IMG/VR virus record: IMGVR_UViG_2526164690_000052
Reading direction: 5' to 3' (one strand)
DNA: 37,501 nt
Source of the DNA: a virus
Taxonomy: Duplodnaviria; Heunggongvirae; Uroviricota; Caudoviricetes
Of the stretch, positions 4,596-13,115 are shown piece by piece. Under the pieces are notes generated by a model, which searched no databases, had not been told where the DNA came from, and worked only from the letters and a program-made list of their open reading frames with translations. Every line of letters starts with the position of its first letter. Positions within the stretch are counted from its first letter, which is position 1. Both the position numbers and the translations under genes were made by a program.

Positions 4596-4985
4596 ATGAT
4601 TGACGCTCATGACTTCACAAGATGGGTGCGCACACAGGACACCCGTCTGGCTCCCGTTCTTCAGGGATTATTTGATCTCTACATCCGTGGTCGTGACAAC
4701 AGAGCACGCACCACAAAACCGGAGAATGCAGACACCCTTTATTTCACAGTAGACGACTGCTACCGCGTGGACTTCACACCACACGGGCTGGCGTTGCACT
4801 GCCTGACACCACACGGCGAATCACTGCTGGCGTATTACGACTCCCCGGCCTCCATATTTGCGGCAATGCTGGCGCATCGCACTGCTGGCGGGTGTGCCTC
4901 GCTGAGTGAATACTCCGCTGAATTTAACCGCCTTTCCGCCCTCTTCTCACAGGAGTGGCAGCGCGTGACGGGATACCAGCCATGA
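4596..4985 (+). CDS. Hypothetical protein immediately upstream of replication gene A
   Basis: 129-aa ORF; stop overlaps start of A. Confidence 0.45.
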   Translation: MIDAHDFTRWVRTQDTRLAPVLQGLFDLYIRGRDNRARTTKPENADTLYFTVDDCYRVDFTPHGLALHCLTPHGESLLAYYDSPASIFAAMLAHRTAGGCASLSEYSAEFNRLSALFSQEWQRVTGYQP

Positions 4986-7822
4986 GTGCGTTTGCATGGA
5001 GCTGGAATGAACCACGGCCAGCCATTGATCCGGCCAGATTTACGGAGCGCAGGCAGGAAACTGAAACCGACCTGCAACGCGCCATCCGTTACTACCTTGA
5101 GGCAAACAAAAGGGCACAGGAAGAACAGGAAGCGAAGGAAGAAGCCTTTTTCGCACAATCCACCGTGGGTAAAAAACTCATGGCATCCCTTGAGGAAGCC
5201 GGACAGCGTGAAAAGCTGGCACAAAGCATCATCAGCAAGCGTCAGGCAACAGAACAAGACCCGGTGGCCCGTGCTTTTGCCACACTGAAGGTGCTTCCCG
5301 TTTATCTGCGTGAACCTCTGAGCCGCCACCTCTCTTTTCTGCGCAAGAAGCAGGAAGCCGATCGTCAGAAAGGCAAAAAGAGCTGGCAGGCTGAACGCTA
5401 CGCGCGCGGAACCCTGCGCAAAATATTCGAACGTCTGGACCGCACCGACAGCCGCTGGCTGACACCGGGCTATCGCTCCCTTGCCGGACGCGAACGCCTG
5501 GACGATTTGCTTTACCTGCCGCAGCTCAACAAACACCAGATACAGACGCTGGCCACCATGACGGCGGCGATGTTCAGTGGCACTTTTGAAAAACTCTGCG
5601 ATGGCTTTGGCGCGACCGATGGCGAGCTGACCATGGATGTAACGCTGAAGGCGTATCAGATGCTGGCCCGCATGGCGTTACACCTGCACGCTATGCCTCC
5701 ACATTATGACGCTCTGACAACAGACAAAGACCGGAGGAATGAACCGGACACGGAGCTGCTGCCGGGCGCAATCCTTCGCCTGACCTGTGCGGAATGGTGG
5801 AAACGCAAACTGTGGCTGTTACGTTGCGAGTGGAGAGAAGAACAACTCCGCGCCGCCTGTCTGGTTTCCAGAAAAACATCACCCTATCTGAGCCAGGACG
5901 CGTTAAGCGAGTTTCGCGCACAGCGCGAGAAAACACGCGATTTCCTGAAAAGTTTCATGCTGGAAAACGAAGACGGGTTCACGATTGATCTCGAGACAGT
6001 GTATTACGCGGGAGTAAGTAACCCGATTCACCGTAAGGCAGAAATGATGGCCACCATGAAGGGGCTGGAACTTCTGGCCGAAGCCCGTGGCGACAGAGCG
6101 GTGTTTCTGACTGTCACCTGCCCGTCAAAATACCACGCCACAACAGAGAACGGTCATCCGAATCCCAAATGGAACGGGGCCACCATGCGCGACTCCAGCG
6201 ATTACCTGGTTAACACGTTTTTTGCGGCGGTCCGCAAGAAACTGAACCGCGACGGCCTGCGCTGGTATGGCATCCGCACGGTGGAGCCTCACCATGACGG
6301 CACCGTGCACTGGCATATGATGGTCTTTGCTCATCCGGAAGAAATCGACACCATTGTGTCCCACACCCGCGATATTGCCATTCAGGAAGACCGCCACGAG
6401 CTGGGCAATGATATTACTCCGCGCTTTAAGGTGGAGTATGTCGACGGCTCAAAAGGCACGCCAACCAGCTACATCGCCACCTACATCGGAAAGAACCTGG
6501 ACAGCCGCGCCGTGGATGGCATCGACCCGAAAACGGGCAAGCCACGCGTTGACCACGAAACCGGAAAATCAATGGCCGAGAGCGTGGAACGCGCCATCGG
6601 CTGGGCACGCCTTCACCGGGTCCGCCAGTTCCAGTTCTTTGGCATCCCCTCCCGTCAGGTATGGCGTGAACTCCGCCGCCTTGCCAGCCAGATGGCACGC
6701 AACCCGGAAGGCCCACAACGGCTGAAGGATGATGCAATGGATGCGGTACTCGCTGCCGCTGATGCCGGGTGTTTTGCCACCTACATTGAGAAACAGGGCG
6801 GCGTACTTGTTCCACGCAAAGACTACCTGATTCGCACCGCCTACGACCTCGCAGATGAGCTGAACGATTACGGCGAACAGAGCGTACAGATTTACGGGAT
6901 CTGGTCACCACTCATCGGGGAATCCTCCCGTGTGTGCACGCACTCGGATAACTGGAAGCTGGTAAGACGTAAACCGGAAGCGGAAGACAGCACCCGCGAA
7001 AATGGTTTTGACCTTCAGGGCGGCCCTGCCGCCACTTGGACTCGTGGCAATAACTGTCCCCGTGTACAGGAAACGGACAACAACGGGACAGAACAGCCGG
7101 AAGAAAGGCCAGCACCGTGGCCGCAGCTTCCTGACGGCGTTGACGTGAATGAATGGATGCGCTCACTGAAACGGCACGAACGCCGGGCGCTGATGCGTTC
7201 GCTGCGTGACAAACAGGCAAAAAACAGCAGTGATGAAATGCAGAACTGGACACAGAGCCGCAAACAGCCACGGCCTTTGCCTGATAACCACGAGTTACTC
7301 GCTAAAGAATGGCGGGAGTCTGCTGAATCTCTCGGCCTGCATATCGGTGAACAGCAGATGCAGCACCTGTTACGGGGCGGCAGTCTGTACGTTGACGGCA
7401 GCATCATTGCACCGCAGGGATTTGAAATTGTACGCAAACCAGATACCCGCCCGGACAGCCGAATCACGCAACTCTGGCAGCGCCTGAGCCGTAATCACGG
7501 CGTAAGCAGCACGGAGATCCGCCATAACCCGGTCGCCAGCTATCTGGAACAGCTGGGGGCATCAGACCCCGAAGCCGCCGCACACCTGGCATCCACACTT
7601 CAGCAGGACCAGAACACCATGAAAACCCCCGTTACCGTGCTTTCTGACATGCTGCGCGCCATCCGTGACGCAGTGCACGCACAGAGAATCAGTGAAACCA
7701 CTGAACGCGCCCACCGCAAAGCAGACCTGCTGCGGGGTAGCCTGACCAGTGGAAACAAAAAACAGACAGAAACGGGACTCACAAATCCCGTAAATGAGCA
7801 AAAAACGTGCCGCGATATATGA
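4982..7822 (+). CDS. A: Replication initiation endonuclease gpA (rolling-circle HUH nickase)
   Basis: about 946 aa; HUH-type motif TVEPHHDGTVHWHMMVF; overall resemblance to P2/186 A proteins; start uncertain (ATG 4982 or GTG 4955). Confidence 0.85.
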   Translation: MSAFAWSWNEPRPAIDPARFTERRQETETDLQRAIRYYLEANKRAQEEQEAKEEAFFAQSTVGKKLMASLEEAGQREKLAQSIISKRQATEQDPVARAFATLKVLPVYLREPLSRHLSFLRKKQEADRQKGKKSWQAERYARGTLRKIFERLDRTDSRWLTPGYRSLAGRERLDDLLYLPQLNKHQIQTLATMTAAMFSGTFEKLCDGFGATDGELTMDVTLKAYQMLARMALHLHAMPPHYDALTTDKDRRNEPDTELLPGAILRLTCAEWWKRKLWLLRCEWREEQLRAACLVSRKTSPYLSQDALSEFRAQREKTRDFLKSFMLENEDGFTIDLETVYYAGVSNPIHRKAEMMATMKGLELLAEARGDRAVFLTVTCPSKYHATTENGHPNPKWNGATMRDSSDYLVNTFFAAVRKKLNRDGLRWYGIRTVEPHHDGTVHWHMMVFAHPEEIDTIVSHTRDIAIQEDRHELGNDITPRFKVEYVDGSKGTPTSYIATYIGKNLDSRAVDGIDPKTGKPRVDHETGKSMAESVERAIGWARLHRVRQFQFFGIPSRQVWRELRRLASQMARNPEGPQRLKDDAMDAVLAAADAGCFATYIEKQGGVLVPRKDYLIRTAYDLADELNDYGEQSVQIYGIWSPLIGESSRVCTHSDNWKLVRRKPEAEDSTRENGFDLQGGPAATWTRGNNCPRVQETDNNGTEQPEERPAPWPQLPDGVDVNEWMRSLKRHERRALMRSLRDKQAKNSSDEMQNWTQSRKQPRPLPDNHELLAKEWRESAESLGLHIGEQQMQHLLRGGSLYVDGSIIAPQGFEIVRKPDTRPDSRITQLWQRLSRNHGVSSTEIRHNPVASYLEQLGASDPEAAAHLASTLQQDQNTMKTPVTVLSDMLRAIRDAVHAQRISETTERAHRKADLLRGSLTSGNKKQTETGLTNPVNEQKTCRDI

Positions 7823-7898
7823 AGCGCGCACAAAACAGGCAAAAGCGGGATTTAAAAATCCTGTAACCGATTAATTAATCAACACAAGGAAAAGCGAC

Positions 7899-8858
7899 AT
7901 GAAAATTTGTATCGACGACGGCTCCACCAACATCAAGCTGGCATGGACTGAGAACGGCGAACGCCGCAACGCCATCAGCCCGAACAGCTTCAAGTCGGAA
8001 TGGTCTGCGCCGTTCGGTGGCACGCAGCCCGCGAACTACATGCTTGATGGCGTGCGCTATGGTTTTGATCCGGTCAGCGATCGCTTTGTCCAGACGACCG
8101 ACACGCAATACCAGTACAGCGATGTGAATATAATTGCCATTCATCACGCGCTGGTCAAATCAGGCATCACACCACAGGAAGTGGATGTGGTTGTCACCCT
8201 GCCACTGAGCGAGTATTTCGATACAAACGCACAGCCGGACATGGCCAACATCAACCGCAAAAAAGCGAACGTCATGCGCCCGGTGGAGTACCAGAACGGC
8301 GAAGCATTCACTATCCGTAACGTACGGGTTATGCCTGAATCCATTCCGGCTGGCTTTAAGGCACTGGCTGACATGAGTCCGTTTGAATCCCTGCTGATTG
8401 TGGATTTGGGCGGAACCACTCTGGATGTGGCAAAGGTTCAGGGGCAACTGGCAGGTATCAGCCAGGTGTTTTGCGATCCACACGTGGGCGTTTCTCTGAT
8501 GGCCGATGCCGTACTGTCGGTGATGGCCACTAACGGTATGCGCACCAGTCACCACATCGCCAATACCATTATCGAACATCGCCATGATGAAGCCTGGCTG
8601 CGCCAGCACATCCACAATGACGCGCATTACGCCAGCCTGATGGCGGTTATTCGTGAAAAGGAAGAAACACTGAAACAACGCGTGATCCGCGCGCTGGCGG
8701 GTTTTTCGGGTTACGGGCGGGTGATGGTTGTCGGTGGAGGGGCGGAGATTGTGGCACCCGCTATCCGCGAAGCCTGCGGAGTTAATGCGACTTTCATCGC
8801 GGACGGGGTGCCACAGTTTGCTCTGGTTAATGGGCTGTACGCAATGGACAAGGAGTAA
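7899..8858 (+). CDS. parM: ParM/StbA-like actin-family segregation ATPase
   Basis: 319 aa; N-terminus MKICIDDGSTNIKLAW...ISPNSFKSEW and internal blocks (YSDVNIIAIHHAL, VMPESIPAG, DLGGTTLD, VGGGAE) match plasmid R1 ParM as recalled. Confidence 0.8.
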   Translation: MKICIDDGSTNIKLAWTENGERRNAISPNSFKSEWSAPFGGTQPANYMLDGVRYGFDPVSDRFVQTTDTQYQYSDVNIIAIHHALVKSGITPQEVDVVVTLPLSEYFDTNAQPDMANINRKKANVMRPVEYQNGEAFTIRNVRVMPESIPAGFKALADMSPFESLLIVDLGGTTLDVAKVQGQLAGISQVFCDPHVGVSLMADAVLSVMATNGMRTSHHIANTIIEHRHDEAWLRQHIHNDAHYASLMAVIREKEETLKQRVIRALAGFSGYGRVMVVGGGAEIVAPAIREACGVNATFIADGVPQFALVNGLYAMDKE

Positions 8859-8862
8859 ACCA

Positions 8863-9174
8863 ATGACGACTCCAACCAGACGGATAAGTTTCTATCTGAA
8901 GCCCACCGCCGTCAAGAACGAAGGAGAAGCATGCGCCTGGCTGGACAGCCTTACACCAGAAGCCCGCAAAAGCGGCCAACGCGTGGCTTTTCTGGCCGGG
9001 CTGGCACTTCTGAAAATGAATCCGGCAGAGGCTTATCGACTGGCTGCATGGGCTGGTGATGAAGCGTTATCAGTGACACAAACCAGGACAGAACGCCCCG
9101 CATCACAGCCAGTATCAACCGCACAGATAACCAGTCAGATGGCCGGAAATATCCGGGCGTTATTTCCTGAATAA
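8863..9174 (+). CDS. parR: ParR/StbB-like partition adaptor
   Basis: 103 aa from ATG 8863 (AGGAG 7 nt upstream); RRISFYLKP...AWLDSLTP...RVAFLAGLALL pattern resembles R1 ParR N-terminal RHH region; directly downstream of parM. Confidence 0.6.
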   Translation: MTTPTRRISFYLKPTAVKNEGEACAWLDSLTPEARKSGQRVAFLAGLALLKMNPAEAYRLAAWAGDEALSVTQTRTERPASQPVSTAQITSQMAGNIRALFPE

Positions 9175-9182
9175 CACAACAT

Positions 9183-9200
9183 CAGGGCGAGTTCGCCCTG
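9183..9200. terminator. Hairpin CAGGGCGA-GT-TCGCCCTG after parR
   Basis: perfect 8-bp inverted repeat immediately after parR stop; no clear U-tract. Confidence 0.35.
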
Positions 9201-9237
9201 CTCTCCACCTCAGAACATAAACAAGGAGAACGACTTA

Positions 9238-9828
9238 ATGAGCGAAATCAACTATCAGGCATTACGTGAACGTTATTCACCTGTGCCAGTACCGAAATGC
9301 CCTATTTGCGGCGAGGAAATGTCAATTCAGCGAATATCTGGAGCACAGGTTGTTTATGCCTGCTCCGGTTATGGTGATGATGGAGATTTCAAAATTGGCC
9401 AAACTCTTGCCGACGAACATTATGAAAAATCACGCGTAACAGTGTTGGATGTCGGGGATCCTGAAGTATTGGCGCTACTTGATTGGCTGGAAACCAAAGA
9501 CAACCGAATCGCTGAACTGGAAAAAATCGCCACTGACTATGCACTTAAATTCCAGAAAGCACAGGACGCATTAAAGTATGCCGCTTTGCTGCATAGCAGG
9601 ACGGCGCAACAAACAAATAATTTTGCAGTATCGCTTCCGGACATAAGCGAATATTTCATTAATGACGTATTTCAGCCCTTGCGATACGAGCGGGATGTTG
9701 AAAGAGCCATCATAAAGGCTGGCGGAAAAGCATTGTGGCAGGAGAAACACGAGGACAGAACGCATCAGTCCTGCGATGTAAATCGTGGATGGTTTAGCCC
9801 ACTGACGACAGATAAAAATAACACCTGA
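9238..9828 (+). CDS. Hypothetical moron protein with N-terminal Cys-rich (zinc-ribbon-like) region
   Basis: 196 aa; KCPICGEEM...YACSGYG near N-terminus; AGGAG RBS; occupies the tin/old-equivalent variable locus between A and cos. Confidence 0.5.
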   Translation: MSEINYQALRERYSPVPVPKCPICGEEMSIQRISGAQVVYACSGYGDDGDFKIGQTLADEHYEKSRVTVLDVGDPEVLALLDWLETKDNRIAELEKIATDYALKFQKAQDALKYAALLHSRTAQQTNNFAVSLPDISEYFINDVFQPLRYERDVERAIIKAGGKALWQEKHEDRTHQSCDVNRGWFSPLTTDKNNT

Positions 9829-9840
9829 TCCCCCTCAAAC

Positions 9841-9866
9841 CAGGGCGATAATCGCGCATCGCCCTG
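9841..9866. terminator. Hairpin CAGGGCGAT-N8-ATCGCCCTG after the 196-aa gene
   Basis: 9-bp perfect inverted repeat; same stem core as hairpin at 9183-9200. Confidence 0.35.
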
Positions 9867-10317
9867 CTGCACAATAGTGCACAAGTTTGCACAATTTTTT
9901 TGAACGACTTTTTACCCTTCCGGCCCGCATGGCGGCTGGATCCGTCAAGGATCCGTGCGTGCACAAAAAAACGCGCTTTTTCTGCGCGCAGGTGACGGGG
10001 GAACAGCCCGCGTTTCAGGGGGTAAATAGCATCCCCTGAACGATGTCGCAGCGACACAACAGAATGGCTGTATTTCTCACGCTGAGCGTGAAAAAGACGT
10101 GAGGGCTTTTGATTTGATGGGTGGCAGATAAGGCCGTCAAAATCGCACTGAGGCGGCGAGAACATGCAGTCAACGCGGTGGGATTGCGTAAGAGTCTGAC
10201 CGCCGATGATGACAATAAGCAGAAAAGCGTCGTGAAATTATCTGATTGATACAGGAGCTGGAGAGTCGGGGCATAAATTTTTTATGCCCCGGCGAAGCAG
10301 CAGACAAGCGAAGCGCG
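9867..10317. other. cos / packaging-site region (candidate cohesive-end sequence near 9991-10009)
   Basis: non-coding stretch between accessory locus and 3' end of portal gene Q, the position of cos in P2-like genomes; dense in palindromes (CTGCGCGCAG 9982-9991) and phased repeats; GGTGACGGGGGAACAGCCC matches the P2 cohesive end as recalled at 13 of 19 positions. Confidence 0.4.
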
Positions 10318-11364
10318 TCAGGATGTGGGCTGGGTATCTAGCAGTGCGTAAGGGTTAAAGCGGATCACCTCTTCGCCAAGCCAGTCATTGATGTGCTTCA
10401 TGGCCTCCATGACGGGCATCAGCTCGTTAATTGCGTAAACCCGCGCGGCCTTCTCCACATCACCAAACGCACTTTTTTCGCCCGGCATCGCCCCCATCAG
10501 TTGCGGCGGAACGCGGTGCGCAGCCAGCACATCATCACGGGATGCCGCCTTAACATTCATGAACTCATCCTTTGCAGTGATCTGCTGGAACGGCAAAATT
10601 TGCACACCTTCTTTGCCCCCGTTGGGCGCATGGATGAGTACGTTTTTAAACGCACCACCACCACGCGCGCCCTGTAACGTTTCTTTCAGGGAGTCCATGC
10701 TTTCGCGGTTTACCTGCGCTGCACCGATGTAGATGATGCACCCGGCGTGGGATCCGTTGTCGTAGTACAGTTTTCTGAACATGTCCGCCGAATGAGAAAG
10801 GCTGGCCGAGAGTAATGCGCCAAGATATTCCGGCATGCCGTAGATTTCCTGGTTAATATCCGGATTCATCAGGTGGCACACTTTGCCAGGGCGAAACTGG
10901 AACGCGTCCTTGCCATCCTGCACATACCACCATGATTCAAGATCGCTTCCGCGTCGCATGTATTTCGCCAGGGCGTGCCGTAATTTAAGCGGTTCGCCGA
11001 GCATATTGCTTCTAAGCTCAAGGAATGCGTTACCGAACACAAACCAGTCCAGCGCCAGCGCCGAGAAATCCTGCCGGGAAAGCAGCGGGTGCGGGATGTA
11101 GCAACCGAGTAATACATTGCGCTTAAAGTAAAGCGCAGACTGATGCCAGGACGTTTGCCGGGCTGCTCTTGCCAGACCGTACCAGTCCACCGGGGTTTCA
11201 TACCACCGTCCGTTATCAGCACAGTACATATTGTCCAGCAGGTCATGCCCGGTCAGGCGATAAGGACCATCAAATGTGAATGCACTGAGCGATGATTCTT
11301 TCCTGAGCGCATCAGCGAGATCAATGCGTGAACTCATGCGCACTTTTTTATTTTTTCTGCTCAT
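10318..11364 (-). CDS. Q: Portal protein gpQ
   Basis: 348 aa; P2 Q-like sequence and synteny (Q-P leftward, overlapping P stop by ATGA). Confidence 0.9.
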   Translation of the reverse strand: MSRKNKKVRMSSRIDLADALRKESSLSAFTFDGPYRLTGHDLLDNMYCADNGRWYETPVDWYGLARAARQTSWHQSALYFKRNVLLGCYIPHPLLSRQDFSALALDWFVFGNAFLELRSNMLGEPLKLRHALAKYMRRGSDLESWWYVQDGKDAFQFRPGKVCHLMNPDINQEIYGMPEYLGALLSASLSHSADMFRKLYYDNGSHAGCIIYIGAAQVNRESMDSLKETLQGARGGGAFKNVLIHAPNGGKEGVQILPFQQITAKDEFMNVKAASRDDVLAAHRVPPQLMGAMPGEKSAFGDVEKAARVYAINELMPVMEAMKHINDWLGEEVIRFNPYALLDTQPTS

Positions 11365-13115
11365 CAGAACTCCATAACCGTGAAACGCTCGTTTTCTCCT
11401 TCGCCGCCAATCGGTTCGTTAATGACAGCAAGCATGGTTGCCCACGCAAGGTCGCCGTGGCTGATCCCCCTCGCGCGGTCCGTTTCGTAAGTGATAAAGC
11501 CGCCCGGTGTTTTCACCTTACGCACGGCGTTAAAGGCCGCGACCAGCTCGCGTTCGGCGCGATCGTATTCCCACCGCCCGGCACGCATTATTTGCAGCAT
11601 TTTCAGTACCAGCGACCGTTTTGATGACAGCGTGAAGGTGTACGGAATAGCAGCAGGGAAAAACCGTTTCACTATCTGATAAACAGCCTCCCCGTTCCCG
11701 CCCGTCACATCAATGCCGATGTGTTCCACGTTGTAGCGATACGTGAACTCTTCAATGACTCTGGCCTGTTCTTCAAACTCCAGCCCCTGAACGCGTCGCG
11801 TCTCCACCGTTCGAAAACGGCCACCAGGAACAGCCGGAGGAACCACCACGGACACAGCGCCGCTGTCGCCGTTGCCACTACTGCCGTTTGCGTCATACCC
11901 AATCCATACCGGACGATTCCCCATCGGGCGGGGAGCAAAAGGTTTCCAGTCTTTCCAGTCGTCGTATCCGTCAACACCGCAGCCAATCAGGATATTCAGG
12001 TTAAATGCCGATTCCCCTTCGCGGACAAACTCACACATATAGAGATTGAGGAACTCGTCTTCGGTGTTTTCATCACGAATTTCGTCGATATCGGTGTGTT
12101 TCCAGCCGTGATTGACCACATCTTCCAGCGTGACAATTTGCCGCCACGTCCGGTCAGGGCAGATAAGCCCGTTATGCAGCGTTTTCCAGTCCACAGAAAA
12201 ACGCTGGCGTTTATGCGTGGCCTTTTTCTCGTTCCAGCGGTCGCCGTTCCAGTAGGCGTATGCCTCGTGCGTTTCGGTGGATGGCGTGGAGAAGTAGGTG
12301 CGCCGCAGTCCGCTGAGGGTTGCCATAGCGCCAGCCACCTTGCGCAGTTCAGCAAAGCGACTGACCCAGAAAAATTCATCAAAATAAAAATTGCCCGTAT
12401 AGGACTGTGCCGACGCAGCAGAAGTGCCGAGAAAATGCAGCTCTGCGCCGTTGGAGAGGATGATTTTATCGCCCCCTTTCAGCTCCACATCAACTTCAGC
12501 CGCGGCCTTCTGAATAATGCTTTTAAACTGGAACGCCTGACGACGCGACGCAGACAAAAAAATCTGGTTACGCTGGTAAGGTTGCGCCACATCGTCACGC
12601 AGCGCCATCAGCAGAGCTTCCTGTGCAAAATACCAGGTCGCCCCAATCTGTCGGGATTTCAGGATCATCCTGTTACGTATCCCGGCTTCCCTGCAAAGGG
12701 TCAGGGAGTCAAACCAGCCCCGCTGATGCCACTCCAGCCTGCTGATGATTTTTTCCCGCAGTGCGGCAATCTGTTCCGGCGTGAAATGATTTTTGAGTTT
12801 TTTCGCCCGGCCTTTCTTTCCTGTGACCGTCGCATCCGGCTGGCCATCATGCAGTTTTTTAAGCTGCCGGGTCAGCAGGTCTATTTCCTTAAAGTCACCG
12901 CCTGTTTTATTCTGTTTTTCAGTAAGCTGGATGAGGCGCGCATCGATGGACTGCGTGACACGCTGCACGGGTGGCGTTTCATCCCACTGGTCGCGTTTTT
13001 TCCACGCATAAATCGTGTTCGGGTTTATTCCCATCAGACGTGATATTTCTGCGGGCGGATAACCCTGCCAGTAAAGTTGCCGCGCACGCTGGCGCACAAA
13101 AGCGTCCTGAATCAT
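11364..13115 (-). CDS. P: Terminase large (ATPase) subunit gpP
   Basis: 583 aa; P2 P-like; divergent from O across a 120-bp late promoter region. Confidence 0.9.
   Translation of the reverse strand: MIQDAFVRQRARQLYWQGYPPAEISRLMGINPNTIYAWKKRDQWDETPPVQRVTQSIDARLIQLTEKQNKTGGDFKEIDLLTRQLKKLHDGQPDATVTGKKGRAKKLKNHFTPEQIAALREKIISRLEWHQRGWFDSLTLCREAGIRNRMILKSRQIGATWYFAQEALLMALRDDVAQPYQRNQIFLSASRRQAFQFKSIIQKAAAEVDVELKGGDKIILSNGAELHFLGTSAASAQSYTGNFYFDEFFWVSRFAELRKVAGAMATLSGLRRTYFSTPSTETHEAYAYWNGDRWNEKKATHKRQRFSVDWKTLHNGLICPDRTWRQIVTLEDVVNHGWKHTDIDEIRDENTEDEFLNLYMCEFVREGESAFNLNILIGCGVDGYDDWKDWKPFAPRPMGNRPVWIGYDANGSSGNGDSGAVSVVVPPAVPGGRFRTVETRRVQGLEFEEQARVIEEFTYRYNVEHIGIDVTGGNGEAVYQIVKRFFPAAIPYTFTLSSKRSLVLKMLQIMRAGRWEYDRAERELVAAFNAVRKVKTPGGFITYETDRARGISHGDLAWATMLAVINEPIGGEGENERFTVMEF

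Follow-up and report, generated by a model that had tools for sequence, protein, structure and literature searches.

In an Escherichia coli prophage of the P2 family, an open reading frame (ORF) of 196 amino acids lies between two perfect hairpins built on a common stem, and this arrangement raises the question of whether the gene and its hairpins form one self-contained unit, moving and being expressed on its own, or whether the hairpins belong to the place in which the gene has landed. An earlier note on this DNA had taken the matching stems as the boundaries of a cassette, possibly acting as terminators or recombination sites, and had considered the gene a moron encoding a candidate anti-phage or anti-defence effector. 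The analysis reported here was made on the window (the whole stretch of 37,501 nucleotides) and on related loci. The explanation that we consider best, and reasonably likely to be correct, is that the ORF is an Ead/Ea22 gene carried as exchangeable cargo in the gpA-gpQ hotspot, that the stem-loops mark the edges of the slot receiving this cargo, that transcription would enter the gene by read-through from parMR, and that the protein would have a role similar to that of other Ea22 proteins.

The window is a P88-like prophage of E. coli (Xuanwuvirus, Peduoviridae, P2 family), and the region is 100% identical to chromosomes of O103, O111, and O26 E. coli. The order of elements is gpA, parM, parR, the ORF, a conserved block starting at 9867, the portal gene, and the terminase gene, the last two being read leftward:

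4955-7822: gpA (Pfam Phage_GPA, E 9e-130).
7899..8858, + strand: parM, an actin-like segregation ATPase and the first of the partition pair upstream of the slot (Pfam StbA_N, E 3.7e-82; ParM C-terminal domain, E 1.3e-68; PHROG 691, partition protein).
8863..9174, + strand: parR, a parR/StbB-type partition adaptor (Pfam Plasmid_stab_B, E 3.2e-23).
9238-9828, + strand: the 196-aa Ead/Ea22-like ORF, with an ATG start, a Cys-containing beta-rich N-module, a coiled-coil helix, a small C-terminal domain, and a disordered tail.
9971..9989, - strand: a hairpin plus T-run that resembles a strong terminator and lies downstream of the portal/terminase operon (GCGCGCAGAAAAAGCGCGT then TTTTTTGTGC).
10318..11364, - strand: the portal gene (gpQ), the right-hand core gene beside the hotspot (portal annotation in relatives).
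11364-13115, leftward: the terminase gene.

The gpA-gpQ interval beside cos is a hotspot of P2-like phages and corresponds to the tin/old site in P2 (PMC9122126; see also PMC13586616), so the placement of the ORF in a tin/old-equivalent hotspot near cos holds. This interval has been documented as a defence hotspot (PMC9122126, PMC13586616), although non-defence cargo has also been reported from it, and a partition system is found there in about a quarter of E. coli P2-like phages (PMC9122126).

The ORF is an Ead/Ea22-family accessory gene, and it has been annotated as such already. The remote-homology search that had been suggested for its product gives a match to Pfam Ead_Ea22 (PF13935) with an E-value of 2.4e-31 and 109.6 bits (cut-off 27), spanning positions 1-134 of the 139 of the model, and the RefSeq name in the 100%-identical genomes is 'ead/Ea22-like family protein'. 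The product also matches several PHROGs of unknown function. A large protein collection yielded 531 homologues; among the matches listed, all 120 contain PF13935, and the names given by their sources are almost all ead/Ea22-like. The description of the protein as Cys-containing and partly coiled-coil is also sound, with Cys residues at positions 21, 24, 42, and 178 and a helix predicted at 75-123. The N-module carries a CxxC...C zinc-ribbon-like cluster, and the AF2 model, whose confidence is modest (pLDDT 64), shows a beta-rich N-module at this cluster, a single long helix (75-123), an alpha/beta domain (130-167), and a disordered tail. In the alignment of homologues, at least four N-modules and several C-terminal domains are combined with an invariant coiled-coil core, LL...I..LE, and mosaicism is evident in the DNA too, since many genomes share just the first 434 nt of the cassette and others share it from the ATG onward. 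The GC content of the ORF is 45%, against 54-57% in the flanks. No match was obtained for the product in a PDB sequence search, nor did Foldseek of the AF2 model (pLDDT 64) against PDB return anything at E <= 0.001, the C-terminal domain of lambda Ea22 included.

The Ea22 members that have been tested, from lambdoid phages (lambda/Stx), bias these phages toward lysogeny, and the Ea22 proteins of lambda and Stx phages form tetramers whose partner is unknown (PMC7093339, PMC10834534); their architecture is mosaic and consists of three parts (PMC10834534). The protein analysed here resembles lambda Ea22, Stx-phage Ea22, and P22 Ead (PF13935, IPR025153) in its strong match to the family HMM, and shares with Ea22 its mosaic evolution and the arrangement of a central coiled coil between an N-terminal part that varies and a C-terminal domain that can be exchanged (PMC10834534). 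It differs from them in that its gene is found in a P2-family phage, after parMR, whereas lambdoid ea22 is located in the exo-xis early-left region, in the CxxC...C zinc-ribbon-like cluster of its N-module, and in a C-terminal domain with no detectable sequence or fold match to the solved C-terminal domain of lambda Ea22. By analogy, the product probably acts as other Ea22 proteins do: it would be a coiled-coil oligomer, whose variable end domains would contact a partner from the host or the phage, biasing the choice between lysis and lysogeny. It has to be kept in mind that this role is extrapolated from lambdoid Ea22, with different end domains and a different genomic context.

The surroundings of the gene support its description as variable cargo. 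In five related phage records, parR and the cos-side block are 91-96% identical, and the DNA between them is unrelated, with the differences confined to the segment between ~9174 and 9866/9867. Homology ends on the left at 9169-9177 in four of these five records and at 9226 in P88, the parR stop codon (9172-9174) being the leftmost homology breakpoint of the slot; on the right, it resumes at 9867/9868, or at 9822 in Chuche. A ParR-anchored search of a viral collection provided 80 further loci, to which other loci fetched later were added, and a ParR scan of genome contigs gave three loci. Among 71 loci, 25 cargo clusters were distinguished, and the final parR-to-cos-block set comprises 62 distinct cargos of ~0.5-1.9 kb, with 31 protein clusters. 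Roughly 1,500 E. coli genomes have this slot. Genes of the Ead type lead the list of cargos (27/62); a ClpX-type zinc-finger gene comes second (22/62), and several unknowns follow. Matches to defence models were obtained for a few cargos, namely an AbiLi/AbiLii-like pair, RmrA, PDC-M04A/DUF3800, and DUF4760 proteins. In longer cargos, the Ead gene can also occupy the second or third place; its start then overlaps the stop of the gene before it, with no hairpin 1 directly ahead.

This slot is similar to the P2-like gpA-gpQ (tin/old) hotspot (Rousset et al. 2022, PMC9122126; PMC13586616) in its position between replication and portal genes beside cos, in its high cargo turnover, and in the presence of a partition system. 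It departs from it in two respects: in the parMR lineage the variable slot is narrowed to the interval from parR to cos, and its commonest cargos are Ead-like and ClpX-zinc-finger genes rather than recognised defence systems. Taking into account that the flanks are long and 91-96% identical, exchange of the cargo needs nothing beyond them, and it probably takes place by homologous recombination between these conserved flanks. Cargo would thus be swapped through ordinary recombination within parR on the left and within the cos-proximal block from 9867 on the right.

The elements at the edges of the slot are the following:

9183-9200: hairpin 1, CAGGGCG-AGTT-CGCCCTG (stem 9183-9189/9194-9200, 7 bp, 4-nt loop).
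9213..9228, + strand: GAACATAAACAAGGAG, a conserved block for translation initiation (Shine-Dalgarno) that the slot provides for whichever gene comes first in the cargo.
9841-9866: hairpin 2, CAGGGCGAT-AATCGCGC-ATCGCCCTG (stem 9841-9849/9858-9866, 9 bp, 8-nt loop).
9868..9901, + strand: the start of the cos-proximal block, with three TGCACAA heptamers in exact 10-bp phase (9868, 9878, 9888), then a T7 run.

The two hairpins around the 196-aa ORF, with their common stem (CAGGGCGA/TCGCCCTG), are present at 9183-9200 and 9841-9866 as had been described. For hairpin 1, an eighth pair would leave an impossible 2-nt loop, and the real structure has 7 bp and a 4-nt loop. The CTGCT reported after each hairpin is found if it is allowed to overlap the last three bases of the stem (CCCTG/CT), but it is not conserved, since hairpin 1 of relatives is usually followed by AT.

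Hairpin 1 ends the P88-type parMR module and is not tied to Ead: it sits 9 nt past the parR stop in 48 of the 62 distinct cargos, many of them without Ead. Its predicted RNA energy is -13.0 kcal/mol (z -2.9 vs shuffles). Conservation reaches at least 90% at each of the 14 stem positions, against ~50-60% at three of the four in the loop; most of the 3' flank falls in the range of ~50-70%. The stem variants consist of one compensatory change from G-C to A-U (L044), one G.U wobble, and one mismatch. In the covariation analysis, 98.6% of cells are paired, and the observed covariation is suggestive but not significant, being reached by 47 of 500 shuffles. In one lineage (L053), the same stem carries a 5-nt loop and stands between different flanks. 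An origin of hairpin 1 in plasmid parMR operons was considered and rejected, as all the parR relatives found in the plasmid collection sit inside P2-like elements, and a divergent parR allele has no hairpin 1.

Downstream of hairpin 1, the left module occurs as two haplotypes. In haplotype A, the loop AGTT is followed by a 12-nt spacer, the block GAACATAAACAAGG, and an Ead start; in haplotype B, the loop CATC or TATC is followed by a 15-nt spacer, the same block, and the ClpX-zinc-finger gene. Between them, the stem and the ribosome-binding block are kept, and the loop and the spacer are unalignable. The block lies 12 or 15 nt after hairpin 1 in 41 of the 62 cargos, before the unrelated Ead (MSEINY) and ClpX-zinc-finger (MQHIDR) genes. 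A weak pairing of CUCUC (9201-9205) with the Shine-Dalgarno GGAGA is predicted, to which little weight is given.

On the opposite side, hairpin 2 forms the stem-loop at the right end of the cargo, immediately next to the cos-side block. Its predicted energy is -15.6 kcal/mol (z -3.7 vs shuffles). In the viral collection, 23 of its 24 matches are in P88-like sequences, all 23 being followed by the CTGCACAATAG anchor, and the remaining one is unrelated. At least four gene ends precede it, i.e., three Ead C-terminal variants and one two-gene non-Ead cargo, and the CAAAC directly upstream is invariant across them. Thus, hairpin 2 and ~17 nt upstream of it persist when the cargo is replaced. A strict association of hairpin 2 with the Ead C-terminal module was also considered, and it was rejected when a pattern scan found the non-Ead cargo ahead of it. 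Hairpin 2 was recovered in 14 distinct contexts with five loop variants, and its stem is altered at the terminal pair alone, one of the changes being U.G.

The T-run at 9895-9901 belongs to the conserved backbone, and GTGCA-N6-TGCAC together with this T-run was flagged as terminator-like on the + strand (~9877-9901). The TGCACAA array was examined as a possible parC centromere; this was rejected on finding the array in 21 gpA-portal loci that lack parMR, which indicates that it goes with the cos/portal side. As many as 64 distinct 45-nt contexts abut the array, and about half of them are classic terminators made of a hairpin and a T-run, such as the P88-type AAACGCCCT-N5-AGGGCGTTTATTT. Stem-loops abutting the anchor are therefore the norm in the hotspot, and hairpin 2 is one of many cargo-terminal stem-loops, unusual just in having no U-tract.

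When the two hairpins are considered together, they appear as the left and right edges of the slot and not as the ends of an Ead cassette. Among the 62 cargos, 34 have hairpin 1 only, four have hairpin 2 only, and 14 have both. The interpretation of the matching stems as the boundaries of one cassette fails on these grounds, hairpin 1 being present in 48/62 cargos, many of them non-Ead, and hairpin 2 closing a non-Ead cargo as well; the comparison of relatives for the exact hairpin-to-hairpin segment, which had been proposed as a check, finds the segment variable but the hairpins segregating independently. Nor are the hairpins canonical terminators in the direction of the gene, as no U-tract follows either of them on the + strand. 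A terminator scan passes hairpin 1 on the minus strand only, with the tail ATGTTGTGTT, and the minus-strand tails of the hairpins are more U-rich (AUGUUGUGUU and GUUUG). A search of Rfam with positions 7700-10400, on both strands, gave no match at E <= 1.

Both hairpins are probably functional stem-loops, judging from stems that are conserved while the loops vary and from one compensatory change; any function at the RNA level is likewise inferred from the sequence. They resemble intrinsic terminators and REP-type stabilisers in being short, GC-rich, perfect stems that closely follow a stop codon or lie where a transcription unit ends, and whose loops vary freely while the stem is conserved, and they differ from intrinsic terminators in having no U-tract in the sense direction. 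They are not known to resemble the E. coli REP consensus. It can also be observed that a near-invariant stem across unalignable flanks could instead reflect sequence-specific recognition.

How the gene would be expressed can be proposed from these elements. A simple consensus scan, from which a weak or non-sigma-70 site could escape, detected no sigma-70-like promoter on the + strand between 7500 and 10500. Taking into account that there is no promoter-like site, that hairpin 1 has no U-tract, that it is separated from the ATG by 37 nt, and that the ribosome-binding block is supplied by the slot, the Ead gene is probably read through from parMR, as the distal cistron of the parMR (or an early) transcript. 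Hairpin 1 would then be a 3' or intercistronic stem-loop of parMR, functioning as an attenuator or as a 3'-end stabiliser of parMR mRNA, and transcription would pass it into the first cargo gene, which would use the ribosome-binding block provided by the slot. Hairpin 2 would close the rightward cargo transcript, with the weak T-run terminator of the backbone 30 nt further on. The more U-rich minus-strand tails of both hairpins suggest that they may, in addition, hold back antisense transcription originating in leftward cargo genes or in the late portal/terminase operon.

The term moron is therefore only partly appropriate for this gene: it is variable in presence or absence at the same position (five phage records, 62 cargos), but the consensus scan finds no sigma-70-like promoter upstream of it. 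The gene is comparable with phage morons in its presence/absence variability among close relatives, its lower GC content, and its 3' stem-loop, and it differs from them in that it has no recognisable promoter of its own, in that the upstream hairpin and the ribosome-binding site are owned by the slot and common to other cargo, and in that its 3' stem-loop (9841-9866, 9 bp) has no U-tract. The stronger version of this interpretation, in which the ORF would be a self-contained moron, expressed from the prophage as an anti-phage or anti-defence effector and insulated by the hairpins as terminators, finds some support in the documented defence role of the hotspot (PMC9122126, PMC13586616), in the AbiL-like, RmrA-like, and PDC-M04A/DUF3800 genes that occupy the slot of relatives, in the GC content of the ORF, which is below that of its flanks, and in the stable stem-loops on both sides. 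However, PADLOC-DB gave no family for the product at E <= 0.01, and the protein is a member of Ead/Ea22, a family in which the proteins that have been tested act on lysogeny (PMC7093339); moreover, a self-contained unit insulated by terminators is at odds with the absence of a promoter-like site upstream and of a sense U-tract in either hairpin, unrelated genes are also preceded by hairpin 1, and the hotspot holds non-defence cargo as well (PMC9122126). A role as effector thus has positional support only, and the proposal as a whole is, in our opinion, quite improbable. Rather unlikely, too, is the idea that the hairpins are conserved linker sequences, possibly fragile palindromes, acting as favoured joints of modules between diverged P88-like genomes and helping to generate the diversity of cargos. 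Several facts would fit it: identical stems flank unalignable segments, with loop and spacer wholly different between haplotypes, several cargos diverge directly after the 3' arm of hairpin 1, hairpin 2 and the ~17 nt upstream survive the replacement of cargo, and in one locus the loop of hairpin 1 is inverted (AACT vs AGTT), as expected of exchange or template switching within an inverted repeat. The pairing of the hairpins is, besides, rare by chance, two perfect hairpins of at least 7 bp sharing an arm within 1 kb being obtained in just 2 of 300 dinucleotide shuffles. Nevertheless, at 7-9 bp the arms are very short substrates for RecA- or Red-type exchange, when hundreds of bp of 91-96% identity are available to it in parR and the cos block; 14 of the 62 cargos diverge at the parR stop, ahead of hairpin 1; what the compensatory and wobble variants suggest is selection on pairing rather than on sequence identity; and the ribosome-binding block is the same kind of conserved island in diverged DNA, explained by ordinary purifying selection.

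Other explanations would assign the hairpins a part in mobility, as the suggestion of recombination sites had done. The pair could mark a mobile unit, moved by a hairpin-recognising enzyme (integron attC-like, IS200/IS605-like, or REP/RAYT-like) or by a secondary action of gpA on single-stranded DNA. The replication of P2-family phages involves gpA and proceeds via single-stranded DNA, and gpA is present here, as indicated by the Pfam Phage_GPA match; furthermore, the same stem is found on both sides of the ORF and is kept across different flanks. Against this, no integrase, TnpA, or RAYT was recognised among the 31 clusters of the slot (ten representatives scanned with Pfam, the rest judged by eye), and no internal copy of the hairpin lies between genes in any of the 62 cargos, 34 of them being longer than 1 kb. 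An empty site, in which hairpin 1 would be fused to the TGCACAA anchor, was searched for too: in the viral collection, the pattern scan retrieved just unrelated GC-rich phages and the L031-type cargo, no record among 5,426 complete E. coli genomes matched a 102-nt junction probe at >=80% coverage, and the matches of a 505-nt synthetic junction query were swamped by occupied sites. The hairpins segregate independently (34, 4, and 14 cargos, as above), and outside P88-like phages the pattern of hairpin 2 has a single, unrelated match. Independent segregation, together with the facts that neither internal copies nor an empty site were found and that no cognate enzyme was recognised in the slot, largely excludes a mobile-element mechanism, whose probability we place close to nil, and no sign of site-specific recombination was seen. 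Only a very small probability is given to a related proposal, in which the CAGGGCG stem-loops would be sequence-specific boundary elements that some factor of the phage or the host recognises in their folded form, as single-stranded DNA or RNA (e.g., in the rolling-circle replication by gpA), and that actively promote the capture or exchange of cargo; if true, it would offer a mechanistic handle on the fast turnover of the hotspot.

Returning to the explanation by slot edges and read-through, part of what it describes is known already: the Ead/Ea22 gene is annotated in hundreds of E. coli genomes, and the hotspot has been published. The conserved stem-loops at the slot edges and the shared ribosome-binding block are small new details. 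The position of Ead/Ea22-like genes as the top cargo of the slot (27/62) extends this family beyond the lambdoid exo-xis region, and the parR-to-cos slot constitutes a second genomic context in which the molecular function of Ead/Ea22 could be tested. Since the slot supplies a stem-loop and a ribosome-binding block to the first gene that lands in it, cargo would be expressed at the tail end of the partition operon rather than as a moron in its own right, a point to be considered when genes from the hotspot are cloned 'with their native promoter' for defence screens.

A last observation concerns the sequence common to both stems. The octamer CAGGGCGA occurs eight times in the window, against 1.4 expected, a number that none of 100 shuffles reaches, and four of the eight copies are arms of the hairpins. 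For this shared 8-nt arm, the slot-edge explanation offers just common descent or convergence on a GC-rich stem. Common descent of the identical stems is plausible, both hairpins being linked to the lineage that carries Ead, and the AGTT loop going with Ead.

Several side observations concern the slot between parR and the conserved cos-side block, and its surroundings. The following features of the window are relevant here:

4955-7822, gpA replication initiator ORF, 955 aa when counted from the first GTG
7899-9174, ParM/ParR partition pair, carried here by a P2-family prophage
9213-9228, conserved ribosome-binding block GAACATAAACAAGGRG (in P88, locus L001, at about 2020-2035)
9868-9901, three TGCACAA heptamers phased at exactly 10 bp, with a T7 run after them
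9960-9966, a fourth TGCACAA copy, 66 nt beyond the array

The GAACATAAACAAGGRG block lies at a constant spacing 3' of hairpin 1, the stem-loop that follows parR, and is common to two unrelated first cargo genes, one Ead-like and the other encoding a ClpX-zinc-finger protein. Thus, the translation signals for any cargo gene landing first are supplied by the slot itself. In the related locus L077, the first 30 nt after parR contain hairpin 1 with the same stem and an inverted loop (AACT versus AGTT), the outcome that would be expected if exchange or template switching had taken place inside the inverted repeat.

The same slot contains recognisable defence candidates in relatives (L037, L053/L063 and L081; in L037, as the cargo between parR and the TGCACAA anchor), namely an AbiLi/AbiLii-like pair formed by an ATPase and a TOPRIM-like protein, an RmrA-like HTH-peptidase with its partner gene, and a DUF3800/PDC-M04A protein. 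Across cos, some relatives (L089 and L090) carry an additional 525-nt gene, annotated FIG00643476, that separates gpQ, the portal gene, from the cos-proximal block, indicating a putative second, smaller variable site.

The conserved cos-proximal block begins at the TGCACAA array. A role of these repeats as the par centromere has been ruled out, since the array is also present in P2-like loci lacking parMR; it may instead be a site for terminase or for a bending protein, or belong to a terminator. In three Ead variants (P0013, P0021 and P0029) the stop codon is missing, and reading runs through hairpin 2 and the array, giving a tail of ...CSPSNQGDNRASPFCTIVHKFAQFF; this C-terminal extension is probably harmless.

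With regard to gpA, the protein is annotated at about 940 aa (2,823-2,841 nt) in relatives, compared with 955 aa here, and therefore its true start probably lies slightly downstream of the first GTG. Small circular deposits labelled as plasmids, NZ_CP148288.1 (34.5 kb) and NZ_CP049283.1 (26.8 kb), are near-identical to the prophage, which suggests that P88-like phages could persist extrachromosomally. A gpA-parMR element (L124) is also located inside the conjugative IncC KPC plasmid pC-Ec2-KPC. Finally, ParR and the slot appear at 91-94% identity in two assemblies labelled as Gram-positive, L086 (NZ_JBQPOM010000071.1, Vagococcus sp.) and L088 (Fredinandcohnia humi), for which contamination or mislabelling is a more likely origin than real transfer.
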